Positions 7,797 to 20,439 of a DNA stretch of 30,280 nucleotides are shown here, one piece after another. The position numbers were made by a program, and so were the translations under genes. Location of the stretch: UHGV virus genome UHGV-0139558, one strand, 5' to 3'. Source of the DNA: a virus. A model generated the notes under the pieces. The model saw only the letters and a program-made list of their open reading frames with translations. It did no database searches and was not told the DNA's origin. Every line of letters starts with the position of its first letter. The stretch's first letter is position 1.

Positions 7797-7885
7797 TTAC
7801 AACTTTATGTTTTAGCTTTCCAACACCTAAAAGTTGTGGTAAAAGTTGTTAATGTTGTATTCTTGCAGCTCGTAACAACTTAACT
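7797..7885. promoter_or_regulatory. Right operator/promoter region (OR-like; pRM/pR expected here)
   Basis: Repeated half-sites ACAACTTTATGT, AACACCTAAAAGTTGT, AAAAGTTGTTAATGTTGT, GTAACAACTT between divergent cI and cro. Confidence 0.55.
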
Positions 7886-8175: not shown

Positions 8176-8733
8176 GTGGGTAAGCATCACTGGAAAATAG
8201 AAAAACAGCCTGAGTGGTACGTGAAAGCTGTCAGAAAAACTATCGCGGCGTTGCCGGGGGGTTACGCTGAAGCCGCTGACTGGCTGGATGTAACAGAGAA
8301 CGCTTTATTCAACCGCCTTCGTGCAGATGGCGATCAGATTTTCCCGCTGGGATGGGCAATGGTTTTACAGCGTGCTGGTGGCACTCACTTCATTGCTGAT
8401 GCTGTGGCGCAGTCTGCAAATGGCGTCTTTGTGTCTCTTCCTGACGTCGAGGATGTGGACAACGCCGATATTAACCAGCGTCTGCTGGAAGTCATTGAAC
8501 AGATCGGCAGTTATTCAAAACAGATTCGTTCAGCAATCGAAGACGGCGTAGTGGAACCGCATGAGAAGACAGCAATTAACGACGAGCTGTATCTCTCAAT
8601 TTCGAAGCTGCAGGAGCATGCAGCACTTGTCTACAAAATTTTTTGCATTTCAGAAAGTAATGACGCCCGCGAGTGTGCAGCTCCGGGCGTCGTGGCGTCG
8701 ATTGCTTCTGGTTGTGGAGAAACTAACGCATGA
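8176..8733 (+). CDS. CII-like / YdaT-like regulatory protein (putative)
   Basis: GTG start with AAGGAG RBS at 6-nt spacing; follows cro as in Rac-type immunity regions. Family call from position and recollection. Confidence 0.45.
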
Positions 8734-13698: not shown

Positions 13699-13715
13699 TT
13701 TGGTGGAGAAAGTTG

Positions 13716-14081
13716 ATGCGTGATATTCAGATGGTTCTGGAGCGTTGGGGAGCATGGGCGGCGAGTGATAGTTCTGGAGTAGACTATTCGCCTATAGCTG
13801 CTGGGTTTAAGGGGCTTCTTCCCTACACAAGCAAAACACGTCAGGCTTGTTCAGATAGTGATGCATTAATTATTGAAGGTTGTCTTGCTCGTCTAAAGCA
13901 AAAAAAGCCAGATGAGCACTCGCTGCTTGTGGCACATTATTTATACAGAATATCCAAGCGTAAGATTGCAAAGGTGCGTGGAAAGGATGAAAAATTGGTA
14001 CGCATAGAAATACAACTAGCTGAAGGATTTATTGATGGTTGCCTTTCAATGTTGGATGTTAACCTTGAAATGGACGCTTAG
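13716..14081 (+). CDS. Q: Late-gene antiterminator Q
   Basis: Begins 'MRDIQMVLERWGAWAA...AAGFKGL' as in enterobacterial Q/Quu antiterminators; GGAG RBS; sits upstream of the lysis cassette. Confidence 0.7.
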   Translation: MRDIQMVLERWGAWAASDSSGVDYSPIAAGFKGLLPYTSKTRQACSDSDALIIEGCLARLKQKKPDEHSLLVAHYLYRISKRKIAKVRGKDEKLVRIEIQLAEGFIDGCLSMLDVNLEMDA

Positions 14082-14116: not shown

Positions 14117-14578
14117 TCACAAGTGGGGGAAGATTTTTCGTAACACTAACCAACACCTTCCGAAGGTATATAGCGAAATTATAAGGGAGGATAAGCCTAA
14201 CAGTATGAATAGGAAATCAATAGGTTTGCCCGCAACAATAACATCATCTGGTAGAAACATCGCTATCAATGGAAATATACATGCGACGATGAGAGTTAAC
14301 CCTGTTGAAAGTAATCGATTTACCAGAGTTGGTAACACGTTGTTTTGCTTAAGGGCATTAATTGCTCCTTCCTTATCGCTGTTTGCACTACTAAATATAG
14401 ATATTGCAGCCAGAACAAAACCAAACAGGATGCCTGATATAGTCGAGAGCACCCCCGCTGTTGTGAGTACGTCAGCATGCTTCATCGGTTTAAACAGTTT
14501 TGTCGCTGCATAGGTCAACAGAATCCAGAGGACGCATTTCCAGAGAAAAGTGGCTAATTCTCTCATTGTGTCCTCCAT
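14117..14578 (-). CDS. Polytopic membrane protein (4 predicted TM helices), second gene of cargo operon (candidate membrane effector)
   Basis: Hydrophobic stretches 'FLWKCVLWILLTYAATKLF', 'VLTTAGVLSTISGILFGFVLAAISIF', 'LSTGLTLIVACIFPLIAMFL', 'IDFLFILLGLSSLIISLYTF'. Confidence 0.55.
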   Translation of the reverse strand: MEDTMRELATFLWKCVLWILLTYAATKLFKPMKHADVLTTAGVLSTISGILFGFVLAAISIFSSANSDKEGAINALKQNNVLPTLVNRLLSTGLTLIVACIFPLIAMFLPDDVIVAGKPIDFLFILLGLSSLIISLYTFGRCWLVLRKIFPHL

Positions 14579-14587
14579 GCTTGGTTA

Positions 14588-15529
14588 TTAGTCTCTGCTA
14601 GCGAGCTCATACTGTGCAAGATAGTTCGCGTTATCAATTTTAGCAGATATCATCGCCGTTCTGATATCAGAATCGGATGGATAACCGCTTTTGACAATGA
14701 TTGTCTTTGTACTGACCAATACTTGGTCAAGTAGACTTTTGGGCGTTCTATTGGATGGCTCTGTTACATCAATTTTTTTAATTTTTAGACCTCCAGAACC
14801 TTTTGGAAAAAGTTCAAGTAGTTCCTTAATAGCATCGGTGACAGAAGTTTTTAGATAGTTAAAACCTTGTTTTTTCGGGCGAATCCGACCTCGCATATTT
14901 AATCTTAGATGCGACCCGCCCATACCAACAACCATGTCAATAATTTCATTAGCTAAAGGGTTTTTAATCTTATAATTAGCTTTGTTAAAGTTTCTTGGAG
15001 CAGCAACTATAAGATCGAAACTACGTAGGATATTTCCGTCCTCAAGCAGTTCCTTCATGCTCTCTTGTTTCCAAATGGCTTCAAAAGTGACGCTTTTTAA
15101 ATCAGTTTTGTTATACAAAATGAATGCCAGATCATTTACTTTGGGCCCTATATGGTTGAGGGTCATAGCTAATAAGTCCGTTTCGTAGTAATAGATAAAA
15201 TATGTTCTTTCAACTACAGAATCTTTATCATTTAAAGGAATTGTTCTCTCACTACCTGTAGCATCCTCGATGAACGGTAGTAGGCATTCCCTTCTCCACG
15301 ATACGTAACCAAAGTAACATTGCAGTGTGGTATCTTTTTGAAGAATAACTAACTTTAACCCTCGATTTGGGGTGTCTGTTGTGTAAGTTATTGGAAAAGT
15401 TACAGTATCTGCTGTGGTCATTTGCTCAAAGGCTAGTTTTGCAGCAGATGTGCCATCTTTTTTGCTTCCATTACCAGTGAAAAAACCAACTCTCACTCGC
15501 CTAGTTTTATTCTTATTTTCTGTACTCAT
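14588..15529 (-). CDS. Hypothetical 313-aa soluble protein, first gene of reverse-oriented AT-rich cargo operon (candidate defense/exclusion component)
   Basis: Long ORF in a locally AT-rich segment between Q and the holin gene; no recognisable catalytic motif; 9-nt gap to downstream membrane gene. Confidence 0.55.
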   Translation of the reverse strand: MSTENKNKTRRVRVGFFTGNGSKKDGTSAAKLAFEQMTTADTVTFPITYTTDTPNRGLKLVILQKDTTLQCYFGYVSWRRECLLPFIEDATGSERTIPLNDKDSVVERTYFIYYYETDLLAMTLNHIGPKVNDLAFILYNKTDLKSVTFEAIWKQESMKELLEDGNILRSFDLIVAAPRNFNKANYKIKNPLANEIIDMVVGMGGSHLRLNMRGRIRPKKQGFNYLKTSVTDAIKELLELFPKGSGGLKIKKIDVTEPSNRTPKSLLDQVLVSTKTIIVKSGYPSDSDIRTAMISAKIDNANYLAQYELASRD

Positions 15530-15825: not shown

Positions 15826-16152
15826 ATGCCTCATAACCCAAATACCTGGCTGGAGTTGGTCCAGAGCTGGTGGCGTGGAGACACACCGCTGGGCGCAGTG
15901 ATTATGTCGATTGTTATGGCTGGTTTGCGCATTGCCTATTTTGGCGGTGGTGGTGGCTGGAAGCGAAAAACACTCGAAATTCTACTCTGTGGCGCTCTGA
16001 CGCTGACTTTTGCATCCGCTCTTGAGTATGTCGGATGGCCTAAATCGCTTTCTGTTGCCATTGGTGGTGGGGTGGGGCTGATCGGTGTCGATGCTATTCG
16101 TGGGGCTGCAATGAGAGTAATCGGTAATAAGTTTGGTGGCTCTAAGGAGTAA
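15826..16152 (+). CDS. S: Holin (lambda S-like, class I)
   Basis: 108 aa, hydrophobic helices and charged C-terminus; immediately upstream of R endolysin. Confidence 0.7.
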   Translation: MPHNPNTWLELVQSWWRGDTPLGAVIMSIVMAGLRIAYFGGGGGWKRKTLEILLCGALTLTFASALEYVGWPKSLSVAIGGGVGLIGVDAIRGAAMRVIGNKFGGSKE

Positions 16153-16155
16153 TTT

Positions 16156-16632
16156 ATGCAGGTACTAAATTCCCAGCGTAAAGCTTTCCTCGATATGGTG
16201 GCATGGTCAGAAGGAACGGATAACGGGCGACAACCGACACGTAACCACGGTTATGATATTATTGTTGGTGGTGAACTATTCACTGATTACTCCGATCACC
16301 CTCGCAAACTTGTCACGCTAAACCCCAAACTCAAATCAACAGCTGCAGGCCGTTATCAACTTCTTTCACGCTGGTGGGATGCTTACCGCAAGCAGCTTGG
16401 GCTGAAAGACTTCTCTCCAAAAAGCCAGGATGCTGTGGCATTGCAGCAGATTAAAGAGCGTGGCGCTTTACCGATGATTGATCGCGGCGATATTCGTCAG
16501 GCTATCGATCGTTGCAGCAATATCTGGGCTTCACTGCCGGGCGCTGGTTACGGTCAATATGAACATAAAATCGGTGACCTGATTGCCCGATTCAAAGAGG
16601 CTGGCGGGGTGGTAAATGAAGTTGAGCTATAA
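16156..16632 (+). CDS. R: Endolysin, lambda R-type lytic transglycosylase
   Basis: 'NSQRKAFLDMVAWSEGTDNGRQPTRNHGYDIIVGGELFTDYSDHPRKLVTLNPKLKSTAAGRYQLLSRWWDAYRKQLGLKDFSPKSQDAVALQQIKERGALPMIDRGDIRQAIDRCSNIWASLPGAGYGQ' is near-identical in pattern to lambda R. Confidence 0.9.
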   Translation: MQVLNSQRKAFLDMVAWSEGTDNGRQPTRNHGYDIIVGGELFTDYSDHPRKLVTLNPKLKSTAAGRYQLLSRWWDAYRKQLGLKDFSPKSQDAVALQQIKERGALPMIDRGDIRQAIDRCSNIWASLPGAGYGQYEHKIGDLIARFKEAGGVVNEVEL

Positions 16633-17050
16633 GCTGGTTATCGCAGCATTCTTCTCTACTGTCATCGGTTCTTTCATCTGGTCTGCTAACCACTACTACA
16701 GCAAATATCAGCACGAAAAGAAACGTGCTGATGAGGCTGTACAAAATGCTGAATCCGCAACCGCTATTACCAATAATGTCCTGCAATCACTGCAAATCGT
16801 CAATACAGTTCTGGAGGCTAACCAGCATGCAAAACAGCAGATCGCACTGGAGTCACAGAGAACCCAGGCTGATATCAAAGTGGCTGTTGCGGATGATGAT
16901 TGTGCTTTACGCCTTGTGCCTGCTGCCGCTGCTGACCGGTTGCGGAAATACGCGGACAGTTTACGTAACAGTACCTCCAATTCCGCTTCCAGCTACTCTG
17001 ACTTTGGAAACGCCAGTACCGCACATACCCGATACTCTGACCTATGGTGA
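16616..17050 (+). CDS. Rz: i-spanin (Rz-like)
   Basis: N-terminal TM 'LVIAAFFSTVIGSFIWSA', coiled-coil periplasmic domain; follows R. Confidence 0.7.
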   Translation: MKLSYKLVIAAFFSTVIGSFIWSANHYYSKYQHEKKRADEAVQNAESATAITNNVLQSLQIVNTVLEANQHAKQQIALESQRTQADIKVAVADDDCALRLVPAAAADRLRKYADSLRNSTSNSASSYSDFGNASTAHTRYSDLW

Positions 17051-17141
17051 CAGTCTGGAGTTGAATGTGAGTCTGTTGTCAGCGTTGGAACAGTGTAATC
17101 TTGATAAAGCGACAATAAAAAATATCGACGCTAACAAATAA
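16893..17141 (+). CDS. Rz1: o-spanin (Rz1-like lipoprotein), +1 frame, overlapping and extending beyond Rz
   Basis: Internal start 'MMIVLYALCLLPLLTGCGNTR' with lipobox LTGC; Pro-rich mature part. Confidence 0.6.
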   Translation: MMIVLYALCLLPLLTGCGNTRTVYVTVPPIPLPATLTLETPVPHIPDTLTYGDSLELNVSLLSALEQCNLDKATIKNIDANK

Positions 17142-17206
17142 AAGGACCTGTAATTTCATAGAGATGATTCCATGTTAATATTGCTTCTTTAACTGGAGGC
17201 ATATTG

Positions 17207-17692
17207 ATGGATTGGAATATGTGGTCTGCTATTGGGGCTTGTGGTTCGGCTATCGCGTCTTTATGGGCGTTGTGTTATGCACGCAAGGCGTTAAACACAT
17301 GGAATAGACAAGAGCAATTTAAAGTAAAGTTAGAGTTTAAACGAGCTTTACTTGAGCTGGAGGATGCCTTTGAGGCAATGCCCGATAATTGGAATTCCAC
17401 ACAATACAGAATAGCTAGAACAAGAGTTGAACAGCAGTATAATGCTGTTGTTCACCGAGTTGATGATGCAGCACAGCTATATTTCAAGAAAGAAAACCTT
17501 AAATCAGCATACCAGAATGCAGTGAGAGCATGGGTTTTATGTGAAGGGGGGATTAAAGATAAAAGTATACATGCTGAATGGAAACAACTCAGGACTGATT
17601 ATAGTCAATATATTATGACTGGTGGAAATAAAAAGTGCTACTTATCAAAAATAGAAAAAATATATTCTAGAATTGTCGTGTTCATAGATTGA
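17207..17692 (+). CDS. Membrane-anchored hypothetical protein (single N-terminal TM), AT-rich moron
   Basis: GGAGG RBS 8 nt upstream; N-terminal 'WSAIGACGSAIASLWALCYA' hydrophobic helix; AT-rich; between lysis cassette and HNH/terminase. Confidence 0.5.
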   Translation: MDWNMWSAIGACGSAIASLWALCYARKALNTWNRQEQFKVKLEFKRALLELEDAFEAMPDNWNSTQYRIARTRVEQQYNAVVHRVDDAAQLYFKKENLKSAYQNAVRAWVLCEGGIKDKSIHAEWKQLRTDYSQYIMTGGNKKCYLSKIEKIYSRIVVFID

Positions 17693-17738
17693 TTTTTATA
17701 TGAGAGAGACAAGTACTCTCTCATTATGGATATTTTAC

Positions 17739-18089
17739 ATGCCACCACGAACCCCAAAAGCCTGCCGCGTTCGCGGCTGCCGCAATACCACTACTGATCC
17801 GTCAGGCTATTGCGAAAACCACAAAAGCGAGGGCTGGAAGCAATACAAGCCAGGACAATCCCGTCATCAACGCGGTTATGGTTCTAAGTGGGATGTTATT
17901 CGCGTGCGTGTGCTGCAACGTGACAAAGGCCTGTGTCAGTTATGTCTGCGTGCTGGTGTGGTACGTGAGGCGAAAACCGTTGACCACATCATTCCTAAAG
18001 CGCATGGCGGCACAGATGCCGACAGCAATCTGCAGAGTCTGTGCTGGCCGTGTCATAAGGCGAAGACGGCCCGTGAACGGCTTAAGTGA
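17739..18089 (+). CDS. HNH endonuclease (terminase-associated)
   Basis: 'VDHIIPKAHGGTDADSNLQSLCWPCHKAKT' HNH motif with CxxC pairs; directly upstream of terminase genes. Could start at 17700. Confidence 0.8.
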   Translation: MPPRTPKACRVRGCRNTTTDPSGYCENHKSEGWKQYKPGQSRHQRGYGSKWDVIRVRVLQRDKGLCQLCLRAGVVREAKTVDHIIPKAHGGTDADSNLQSLCWPCHKAKTARERLK

Positions 18090-18214: not shown

Positions 18215-18709
18215 ATGGCTGGAACGGCGGGGCGTTCCGGGCGTCGCCCTAAGCCAACGGCGCGCAAGGCGCTGGCCGGAAACCCCGGCAAGCGAGCCCT
18301 GAACAAAGATGAACCTGTTTTTACGCCCATCAAAGGTGTTGAGCCACCGGAGTGGTTCGCTGAAGAAGAGCTTCCTCTCGCCACGATCATGTGGCAACTG
18401 ACAACCAAAGAACTCTGCGGTCAGGGCCTGCTGTGCGTGACTGACCTCGCAGTGCTTGAGCGGTGGTGCGTGGCCTATGAGTTCTGGCGACGTGCCGTGA
18501 AAAATATTGCCAGACAGGGCAACACCATCACCGGTGCAATGGGCGGCATGGTCAAAAATCCGGAGCTGACCGCCAAAAAAGAACAGGAGTCCGAGATGAG
18601 CAGTACGGGGGCAATGCTCGGACTCGACCCCAGCAGCCGCCAGCGTCTGATTGGCCTGGCGGGGCAGAAGAAAGCCACTAACCCGTTTCTGAAAATTATC
18701 GAATCATGA
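18215..18709 (+). CDS. Terminase small subunit (P27/HK97 family)
   Basis: '[34 protein letters not shown]' N-terminus characteristic of this family; GGAG RBS. Confidence 0.8.
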
Positions 18710-20439
18710 GCCGGAAATCTTACCCCAACGTAAATGCTGCAAATCAGTATGCCCGGGATGTCGTGCGCGGAAAGATTGTGGCCTGCCAGTTTGTGATTCA
18801 GGCCTGCCAGCGCCATCTTGATGACCTGATGGCGGAAAAAAGTAAGTCGTTTCGTTACCGCTTCGACAAGGACCTGGCTGAACGGGCTGCCAAATTTATT
18901 CAGCTGTTGCCGCACACCAAGGGTGAGTGGGCATTTAAACGGATGCCCATCACGCTGGAGCCGTGGCAGCTATTTGTGATCTGCTGTGCGTTTGGCTGGG
19001 TCAATAAAGGCACCCGATTGCGCCGCTTCCGGGAGGTGTATACCGAAATCCCCCGTAAGAACGGCAAATCGGCAATCTCTGCCGGTGTCGCCCTGTATTG
19101 TTTTGCCTGTGATAACGAGTTCGGCGCGGAAGTGTATTCCGGTGCCACGACGGAGAAACAGGCATGGGAAGTCTTTCGTCCGGCAAGACTGATGTGTAAA
19201 CGCACACCCATGCTGACGGAAGCGTTCGGGATTGAGGTTAACGCCTCAAACATGAACCGTCCGGAGGATGGTGCGCGTTTTGAACCGCTGATCGGTAACC
19301 CCGGTGATGGTTCATCACCCCACTGTGCGGTGGTGGATGAATATCACGAGCACGCCACAGATGCGCTTTACACCACGATGCTTACCGGGATGGGGGCGCG
19401 ACGCCAGCCACTGATGTGGGCCATTACCACCGCCGGGTACAACATTGAGGGGCCGTGCTACGACAAACGGCGGGAAGTCATCGAGATGCTCAACGGCTCG
19501 GTGCCCAACGATGAACTGTTCGGGATCATCTATACCGTTGATGAAGGTGACGACTGGACCGACCCGCAGGTGCTGGAAAAAGCCAATCCAAATATTGGTG
19601 TGTCGGTTTATCGCGAGTTTTTGTTAAGCCAGCAGCAACGTGCGAAAAATAACGCCCGTCTGGCAAACGTCTTTAAAACAAAACACCTCAATATCTGGGT
19701 GTCGGCGCGTTCGGCGTATTTCAACCTGGTGAGCTGGCAGAGCTGCGAGGATAAATCACTGACCCTTGAGCAGTTCGAGGGGCAGCCGTGCATTCTGGCC
19801 TTTGACCTGGCGCGTAAGCTGGATATGAACAGCATGGCGCGACTTTATACCCGCGAGATTGACGGTAAAACGCATTACTACAGTGTGGCCCCGCGTTTCT
19901 GGGTACCGTATGACACGGTGTACAGCGTCGAGAAAAATGAAGATCGACGGACAGCCGAACGCTTTCAGAAATGGGTGGAAATGGGCGTTCTGACCGTTAC
20001 CGATGGTGCGGAGGTGGATTATCGCTACATCCTCGAGGAGGCCAAAGCGGCGAACAAAATCAGCCCGGTCAGTGAGTCACCCATCGACCCCTTCGGGGCG
20101 ACCGGGTTGTCACATGACCTTGCTGATGAAGACCTGAACCCCATCACTATCATTCAGAACTACACCAACATGTCCGACCCGATGAAAGAGCTGGAAGCGG
20201 CAATTGAATCGGGGCGCTTTCATCATGATGGCAATCCCATCATGACCTGGTGTATCGGCAACGTGGTCGGCAAAACCATTCCGGGTAACGATGATGTGGT
20301 GAAGCCCGTCAAAGAGCAGGCGGAAAACAAAATCGATGGTGCAGTTGCGCTGATTATGGCGGTTGGCAGAGCCATGCTGTACGAGAAAGAAGACACGCTG
20401 TCTGACCACATTGAGTCCTATGGGATCCGCTCGCTTTAA
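18706..20439 (+). CDS. Terminase large subunit
   Basis: 577 aa; ATPase region '[14 protein letters not shown]', 'VVDEYHEH'; C-terminal nuclease-like domain; ATGA overlap with small subunit. Confidence 0.9.

Follow-up and report, generated by a model that had tools for sequence, protein, structure and literature searches.

In phage lambda, the bor gene encodes an outer-membrane lipoprotein on the opposite strand, and in IS10, an inverted repeat upstream of the transposase's own start pairs with the ribosome-binding site only in transcripts entering from outside, which is called fold-back inhibition. Phage morons are defined as insertions that differ in GC content from their surroundings and carry a promoter and a terminator of their own, and HK97 gp15 is an inner-membrane exclusion protein (PMC3594210). 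P22 SieA, a prophage inner-membrane protein of about 162 amino acids (aa), blocks the DNA entry of related phages, and its types share less than 30% identity (PMC10883804). Prophage defense genes are known from the region upstream of the packaging module, among them the one for phi80 TaiEcA, a 204-aa protein that is transcribed against the late operon and for which no membrane segment is mentioned (PMC11364771). The releasin of phage Mu, gp25 (DUF2730), is a membrane-tethered N-out/C-in protein with a few periplasmic residues and an anionic 73-aa cytoplasmic domain (PMC9239132). Here, we analyzed a 161-aa open reading frame (ORF) between the lysis and packaging genes of the virus genome UHGV-0139558, a stretch of 30,280 nucleotides (nt) that we call the window, and compared it with its relatives in other prophages. 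Judged from its sequence, this ORF, hereafter the cargo gene, is a genuine gene and belongs to a small family restricted to prophages.

The anatomy of the cassette around the cargo gene is that of a moron, with a terminator that looks degenerate and a promoter that is weak and putative in the window. Like classical morons such as HK97 gene 15, it is a small single gene located between genes that are adjacent in relatives, it has a deviant GC content and is co-oriented with the late operon, it is accompanied by promoter-like and terminator elements, and its predicted product is a small inner-membrane protein. Unlike HK97 gene 15, whose place is the tail operon, it lies at the lysis/packaging junction, its promoter is only putative, and its terminator in the window is degenerate. 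Its product has no similarity to HK97 gp15/YebO (no Pfam match) and is larger, with 161 aa and a folded cytoplasmic bundle. As in the case of lambda bor, the cargo gene comes immediately after Rz/Rz1 in a lambdoid phage, and the initial annotation had compared its position with that of bor and named serum resistance among the functions of such cargo. Neither a Bor analogy nor a role in serum resistance was supported. The membrane anchor is predicted to sit in the inner membrane with C-in topology, the gene runs in the same direction as the late genes, and we found no Pfam Bor match for the window protein and no lipoprotein signal, the sequence IGAC at residues 9-12 having no basic n-region and its Cys12 being unconserved.

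The cargo gene family and its slot in prophage genomes

The cargo protein matched PHROG 6169, annotated as "unknown function," over its full length (E 5.6e-65). A profile search of 1.84 billion representative proteins returned 45 family matches at E<=1e-3, 27 of them at E<=1e-10, with lengths of mostly 160-220 aa, and a profile search of a 5.8-billion-protein set returned 6 proteins only. Close homologues were found in Salmonella (one cluster with 134 members), Citrobacter, and E. coli, and remoter ones in genomes of Enterobacter, Pantoea, Atlantibacter, and Yersinia. The related-locus search was run with a 13-sequence subset of the 29-sequence family alignment. Among IMG/VR viral contigs, 80 places with a family member were found, many from isolate genomes, and the loci were reduced to 40 clusters at 80% identity, to which the cluster counts given below refer. 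A lack of conservation in related prophages, which the initial annotation had named as a sign against its proposal, was therefore not what we saw, as homologues were present in 40 clusters. The cargo gene is evidently under purifying selection: relative to a 69%-identical variant, its ratio of nonsynonymous to synonymous substitution rates (dN/dS) was 0.31 overall, 0.09 for codons 1-62, and 0.30 for the remaining codons.

The gene is rare. It was found in 9 of 5,426 complete E. coli genomes, and only 9 of the 1,233 E. coli genomes that have this Rz/HNH region hold it, so that more than 99% of them are without it. A tblastn search with four family members gave 1 positive among 50,697 deposited phage records, Salmonella phage 118970_sal3, and a megablast search of the island containing the gene against phage records gave no match. 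No family member was found on plasmids, and the family is restricted to the phage late region, being absent from plasmids and from chromosomes outside prophages. Over 1.6 kb, the region in the window and a prophage of E. coli FT130 are 100% identical, and the protein-coding stretch is 100% identical to the copy in Shigella flexneri SFBU0723; the host element is an E. coli/Shigella-type lambdoid prophage.

The rarity of the gene in E. coli and the lack of an annotated function or known domain might be taken to mean that the ORF is spurious, i.e., a chance frame or a decaying remnant in an AT-rich spacer. However, the PHROG 6169 match is full-length (E 5.6e-65), 27 representatives at E<=1e-10 were found among the 1.84 billion proteins, and the family keeps its motif, length, and start context; the dN/dS values of 0.09-0.31 and an AlphaFold predicted local distance difference test (pLDDT) score of 93.5 argue in the same direction. 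We regard a spurious ORF as extremely improbable, and this reading is refuted as far as sequence can refute it.

The window protein had no match in Pfam, NCBIfam, PADLOC-DB 2.0 (at E<=1), or, by sequence, PDB. UniRef uses the label DUF4760 for Salmonella proteins that are 98% identical, but we rejected membership in this family because the Pfam model did not support it: the window protein and its close homologues gave no DUF4760 match at E<=10, the 29 family members gave none at E<=0.01, and the precomputed Pfam column was empty; a distant relation to DUF4760 may still exist. Relations to YebO and to holins were also rejected, with no match in the family and domain searches of the window protein, as was a relation to HepS, whose paper never mentions a transmembrane segment (PMC13043305). 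Two paralogues with 31% identity are present within one prophage, L038 (7944-8465 and 10100-10660, 1.6 kb apart), and another, L008, also carries two family members in the same junction. In L090 (1331-1861 and 1968-2540), the adjacent ORF shares the N-terminal anchor only, its C-terminal domain being unrelated and having no Pfam match.

The cargo gene and its neighbors in the window are as follows.

17207..17692 (+), coding sequence of the cargo gene: 161 aa, 18.9 kDa, isoelectric point (pI) 9.1, PHROG 6169
17113..17141 (+), left edge of the island, within the final Rz1/LysC codons: aligned with E. coli D53-1, the sequence diverges from about 17113
15826-16152, lambda-family holin, upstream of the cargo gene
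16156-16632, endolysin, upstream of the cargo gene
16616-17050, Rz, upstream of the cargo gene
16980-17141, Rz1/LysC, embedded in Rz
17700-18089, longest ORF of the HNH endonuclease: its probable true start is the ATG at 17739, as indicated by a RefSeq homologue of 351 nt and by alignments
up to 18709, P27-family TerS, downstream of HNH
18706-20439, TerL, followed by the portal gene

The reading frame spans 17204..17692 (+) if counted from a TTG, and the ATG at 17207 gives 161 aa and a stop, which agrees with the coordinates and length given by the initial annotation, as does the placement of the gene between Rz/Rz1 on its left and HNH, TerS, and TerL on its right. Three close starts are in frame, TTG 17204, ATG 17207, and ATG 17219 (M-M-D-W-N-M-W); this triple start at 17204-17221 resembles dual-start motifs, and distant family members are without it. 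The AT-rich island noted earlier is also borne out: the cargo ORF has a GC content of 0.379 (0.321 at third codon positions, GC3) versus 0.478 in Rz, 0.528 in HNH, 0.585 in TerS, and 0.541 in TerL, and 0.492 in the whole window. If HNH starts at 17739, a spacer of 46 nt follows the cargo stop and contains a hairpin at 17703-17723.

In E. coli D53-1 and many other genomes, Rz1 is followed directly by HNH with a 26-nt gap, and, compared with this empty slot, the island extends from about 17113, in the last Rz1 codons, to about 17730. The altered 3' end of Rz1 travels with the cargo gene, as it is common to all close homologues. In other prophages, the slot holds YodC (on the opposite strand), a GrlR-family gene, or one of several hypothetical genes, with inserts of 0 to about 1.2 kb. 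Across the family, the gene lies on the late-gene strand in all 40 clusters, with a lysis gene at most 4 ORFs upstream in 31 of 40 and a packaging gene at most 4 ORFs downstream in 28 of 40; the reverse arrangement, lysis downstream or packaging upstream, was seen in 1 and 1 of the 40, respectively. Several unrelated families are represented among the flanking holin, endolysin, spanin, and terminase genes, and the family gene was AT-richer than its flanks in 37 of the 37 clusters tested, with a median GC difference of -0.108. The cassette has probably spread among Enterobacterales prophages, with the lysis/packaging junction as its constant lodging site. At L044 (8825-10336), and at the same position in L047 and L057, a glycosyltransferase of about 500 aa (phrog_1579, PHROG category "moron") lies directly downstream of the family gene. 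The junction is thus able to take up several cargo genes one after another.

The gene's strict synteny, with a constant place beyond the spanins, the same strand, and a distance of a few genes from the endolysin, favors a late lysis accessory, i.e., a protein made from the late transcript that tunes lysis from the cytoplasmic face in the manner of a releasin, an antiholin, or a timing factor. However, its partner lysis genes come from several unrelated families, implying no specific partner, and more than 99% of the E. coli genomes with the Rz/HNH region are without the gene, each inspected locus of this kind keeping a full lysis cassette. No helper is needed by the lambda-type holin and the soluble endolysin of the window itself; this endolysin has no N-terminal hydrophobic segment, and no need for the release of a signal-arrest-release (SAR) endolysin is apparent. 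The AT-richness at all loci marks mobile cargo instead.

Putative expression signals of the cassette

Four elements around the cargo gene may bear on its expression.

17173..17181 (+), extended -10-like element TGtTAATAT: its hexamer, 17176-17181, ends 26 nt before the ATG; a putative promoter of the gene's own, read from sequence
17175..17207 (+), fold-back hairpin, whose 5' arm (17175-17181 and 17183-17188) forms base pairs with 17195-17207, a stretch that takes in the Shine-Dalgarno sequence (SD) and the start codon's first base
17195..17199 (+), SD, GGAGG, 7 nt 5' of the ATG
17703..17723 (+), hairpin GAGAGAG-N7-CTCTCTC, between the cargo stop and the HNH start

The -10-like element has counterparts in the family. 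In 31 of 40 clusters, a hexamer that agrees with TATAAT at 5 or more of 6 positions, A2 and T6 included, has its end 20-45 nt before the ATG, with an observed mode of -26 to -28, versus 11.1 +/- 2.65 (maximum 18) when the same test was applied to dinucleotide shuffles. One locus, L063, has TTTCCA-18-TATAAT upstream along with a terminator, and the upstream block GGCATTCAnnnAGTGCCTGTGATAAT, with TAGGCA-16-TGnGATAAT, is common to a group of loci with unalignable left flanks. In L063 and the group-B loci, the promoter sequences are clear. A palindrome, GGCA-N9-TGCC, was also observed about 40-70 nt before the family start in eight loci (L042, L047, L053, L067, L068, L044, L061, and L065), where it overlaps the promoter-like TAGGCA-16-TGnGATAAT and the DNA further upstream is unalignable. 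It is possibly an operator for some regulator.

On the other side of the gene, a canonical intrinsic terminator is present about 0-90 nt after the stop in 22 of 39 clusters, versus 3.3 +/- 1.5 in dinucleotide shuffles and a rate of 18% for 618 other genes of the same loci. Many of the family terminators use the hairpin AACCGCCnnnnGGCGGTT, with compensatory variants. At least 6 loci have a similar terminator also 100-200 nt before the start, and the gene would be insulated on both sides there because terminators stand upstream and downstream of it; a strong terminator between the gene and the lysis cassette is a further point against a late lysis accessory. In L039, L035, L042, L047, and L068 (in the last at 7829-7848 and 8500-8517), near-identical AACCGCCnnnnGGCGGTT and T-run terminators are found on both sides. 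Such near-identical flanking terminators may be exchange points of the cassette between phages. In the window, the stretch 17685-17745 folds at -14.1 kcal/mol (z -2.96).

The initial annotation had described the ribosome-binding site as strong. The GGAGG is indeed present 7 nt before the ATG, but it is buried within a stable hairpin: the stretch 17175-17209 folds with a minimum free energy (MFE) of -11.2 kcal/mol and a z of -5.16, and none of 200 shuffles was as stable. In the family, the SD, and in some loci the AUG as well, is paired with a pyrimidine-rich arm just 3' of the hexamer. The region from -30 to +3 has a mean z of -1.87 and an MFE of -8 kcal/mol or lower in 26 of 40 clusters, versus a mean z of -0.07 and 19 of 150 for other SD-bearing genes of the same loci. 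When 565 kb were searched with a covariance model built from 12 seed loci, five additional family loci were detected at their start sites with E<0.3. In the resulting alignment, pairing is seen in 79.7% of the cells, compared with 73.6 +/- 2.0 for shuffles and 40-48% for slid controls, and 11 double-change cells were counted versus 4.5 +/- 1.7; as these counts come from an alignment fitted to the model, they lean toward it and are support, not proof. The window's own hairpin was not recovered by the covariance model at E<=10 and rests on the single-sequence fold, and RNAalifold predicted no pairs on the MAFFT alignment of the start regions, in which the 3' arms are out of register.

This arrangement suggests how the gene might be expressed. 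In the lysogen, the weak promoter of the gene's own (-10 at 17176-17181) would start an RNA within the hairpin's 5' arm or just behind it, because a sigma-70 start normally lies about 7 nt past the -10. The SD would be free in this transcript, and the protein would be made at a low level. On Q-antiterminated read-through from the lysis genes, the complete hairpin would bury the SD and the AUG and translation would be damped. If this logic is right, it follows that the protein is intended to serve the lysogen and not lysis. A late lysis accessory would have its SD and AUG sequestered in exactly the RNA that a late read-through would make; it would in turn find support in a scan of the window that revealed no consensus promoter. 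The masking of the ribosome-binding site by fold-back on read-through RNA, as suggested here by the sequence, is like that of the IS10 transposase; unlike in IS10, the gene is phage cargo and not a transposase, and the start site is inferred.

Single-gene cargo, as the initial annotation had called it, is thus supported by a polymorphic slot, a deviant GC content in 37 of 37 clusters, and family-wide promoter-like and terminator features. On this basis, an accessory cassette with its own expression signals is the probable nature of the locus.

The predicted protein and its possible role in the lysogen

Three segments can be distinguished in the cargo protein.

17222..17281 (+), N-terminal transmembrane (TM) helix WSAIGACGSAIASLWALCYA: codons 6-25, followed by R26 and K27; predicted N-out/C-in
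17279..17341 (+), juxtamembrane motif A..AL.TW..QE..K.K..FK: codons 25-45; the family's most conserved stretch
17303..17671 (+), four/five-helix bundle: codons 33-155; from AlphaFold2

An N-terminal hydrophobic helix and a soluble C-terminal domain had been noted initially, and both were recovered. The helix is moderate in the window copy (best 19-residue Kyte-Doolittle mean, 1.45) and clear in the family (median, 1.87), and the C-terminal domain is confidently predicted as a helical bundle. In the family, the 15 residues before the hydrophobic segment contain 28 K/R and 54 D/E, and the 15 after it contain 135 K/R and 65 D/E. Because of the K/R excess after the segment, the positive-inside rule predicts the helical bundle to be cytoplasmic. 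The protein is thus predicted to be a single-pass inner-membrane protein with about 5 residues outside, one TM helix, and a cytoplasmic bundle of about 135 residues.

AlphaFold2 with the 29-sequence alignment gave a pLDDT of 93.5 and a predicted template modeling score (pTM) of 0.81; it superseded an earlier run with 4 sequences that was unreliable (pLDDT below 50 in 4 of 5 models). The modeled helices are an unbroken one at residues 3-57, which includes the TM segment, and those at 64-81, 89-112, 119-138, and 143-155. In the family alignment, A25, W32, and P59 are invariant, and A28, Q35, E36, K39, F44, and K45 are at least 90% conserved. The conserved residues other than P59 line the juxtamembrane part of the long helix, so that the membrane-proximal face of this helix is conserved while the rest of the bundle diverges. 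Fold searches returned generic four-helix bundles only, including sensor-kinase and chemoreceptor domains, CheA P1, the NasR NIT domain, and Csx28 (rank 56). As for membrane effectors of the HEPN type, such as Csx28, the combination of an R-x4-6-H motif with a specific fold match was not found.

The architecture resembles that of the Mu releasin, which again favors a late lysis accessory (PMC9239132). Like gp25, the cargo protein is predicted to have an N-out/C-in tether with few periplasmic residues and a basic pair at the membrane junction, and its gene lies a few positions past the endolysin and before the terminase. Unlike gp25, it has a 134-aa cytoplasmic domain (versus 73 aa) and is basic overall (pI 9.1), its gene stands beside canonical holins and soluble endolysins and is optional in the phage group, and its translation start is predicted to be masked in read-through RNA. 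Homology to Mu gp25/DUF2730 was rejected, with an hhalign probability of 0.2% for the family profile and no Pfam match. Taking these points together with those from the locus and its expression signals, we consider a role in lysis, the main alternative to the reading offered below, rather unlikely.

If the protein is made in the lysogen, it would act at the cytoplasmic face of the inner membrane, and its likeliest role would be to stop superinfection, by a block to genome entry or by abortive infection at the membrane level; exclusion and abortive infection were also among the functions that the initial annotation had named for such cargo. The near-absence of the family from deposited phage genomes and the divergent paralogues in one prophage (31% identity) are consistent with a role in the lysogen, as is the location in a region known for prophage defense genes, e.g., phi80 Tai (PMC11364771). 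Like SieA, the cargo protein is prophage-borne, predicted to be in the inner membrane, and of similar length (161 aa); unlike SieA, it has one predicted TM segment instead of three and another genome position, and the only PHROG it matched was 6169. Like the gene of phi80 TaiEcA, the cargo gene occupies the stretch between Rz/Rz1 and the packaging genes; unlike that gene, it is co-oriented with the late operon and encodes 161 aa with a predicted TM helix. Homology to TaiEcA was rejected (hhalign probability, 0.07%).

A lysogenic-conversion factor unrelated to phage defense, acting for instance in transport, envelope stress, or tolerance to colicins or antibiotics, would have the same cassette anatomy and prophage restriction as a superinfection-blocking protein. 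The neighbors found in the slot, which include members of the YodC and GrlR families and, at three loci, a glycosyltransferase, would suit such a factor, as would the lack of a defense-database match for the window protein. However, there is no indication of any specific host target, the family occurs in the phage late region only and is absent elsewhere on chromosomes and on plasmids, and the divergent paralogues and the fast-evolving C-terminal domain fit phage conflict better than a housekeeping interaction. We regard this kind of conversion as unlikely.

Several observations weigh against a superinfection-blocking protein expressed from its own signals. As to the promoter, the hexamer in the window matches TATAAT at 4 of 6 positions plus the extended TG, the scan of the window for consensus -35/-10 elements and terminators called neither a promoter nor a terminator at the cargo gene, and promoter motifs were not enriched in the family over the full 230-nt upstream region. 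The sigma-70 start site is placed only by the usual -10 spacing, and the TATAAT-like hexamer of roughly half the loci may be kept for pairing with the ..TTATG start region and not as a promoter. In the group-B loci, a better promoter lies upstream of the hairpin, so that transcripts from it would include the anti-SD arm. The hairpin at 17703-17723 is without a T run, was not called by the terminator scan, and is a degenerate terminator at best. Co-orientation with the late operon makes some late expression unavoidable. As to the protein, a domain facing the cytoplasm cannot reach an incoming tail in the periplasm, the generic helical-bundle fold gives no clue to the activity, and the 29 relatives had only 4 weak single-member matches in PADLOC-DB 2.0, the best at E 0.0013.

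Given an accessory cassette, we therefore consider the prospects of an anti-phage role evenly balanced. The reading as a whole, a self-contained moron cassette whose inner-membrane protein would be expressed in the lysogen and would stop superinfecting phages, is offered tentatively, with somewhat less than even confidence. Its most specific form, a single-gene immunity module with a switch by which the gene's own short RNA would be translatable and the read-through RNA silenced, and whose product would block entry or trigger abortive infection, is possible but doubtful.

Other possible cargo in the window and significance of the family

A second AT-rich island (14117-15529(-), GC 0.36-0.42) was observed between a Q-type antiterminator (13713-14081) and the holin. 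It contains a 313-aa ORF (phrog_7651) and a 153-aa hydrophobic ORF that is probably multi-pass (phrog_8552), both PHROGs being annotated as "unknown function," and these ORFs had no match in Pfam, NCBIfam, or PADLOC. In related prophages, the corresponding slot is occupied by a DNA methyltransferase, by a KAP NTPase, or by a nucleoid-associated protein together with IS1. The second island is a candidate for a two-gene cargo or defense unit. Rfam and tRNA scans of the window found nothing.

Should the proposed role of the cargo gene fail, the family would be one more conserved phage protein of unknown function. If the role is correct, an easily cloned cassette of about 600 bp would join the protective genes of prophages, and it would represent a family that current defense finders have missed. 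Lambdoid phages with unrelated lysis and terminase modules would then be seen to share the lysis/packaging junction as a general cargo site, and the cargo gene would provide a testable case of a late-operon cargo gene that is translated in the lysogen and muted in lytic growth.

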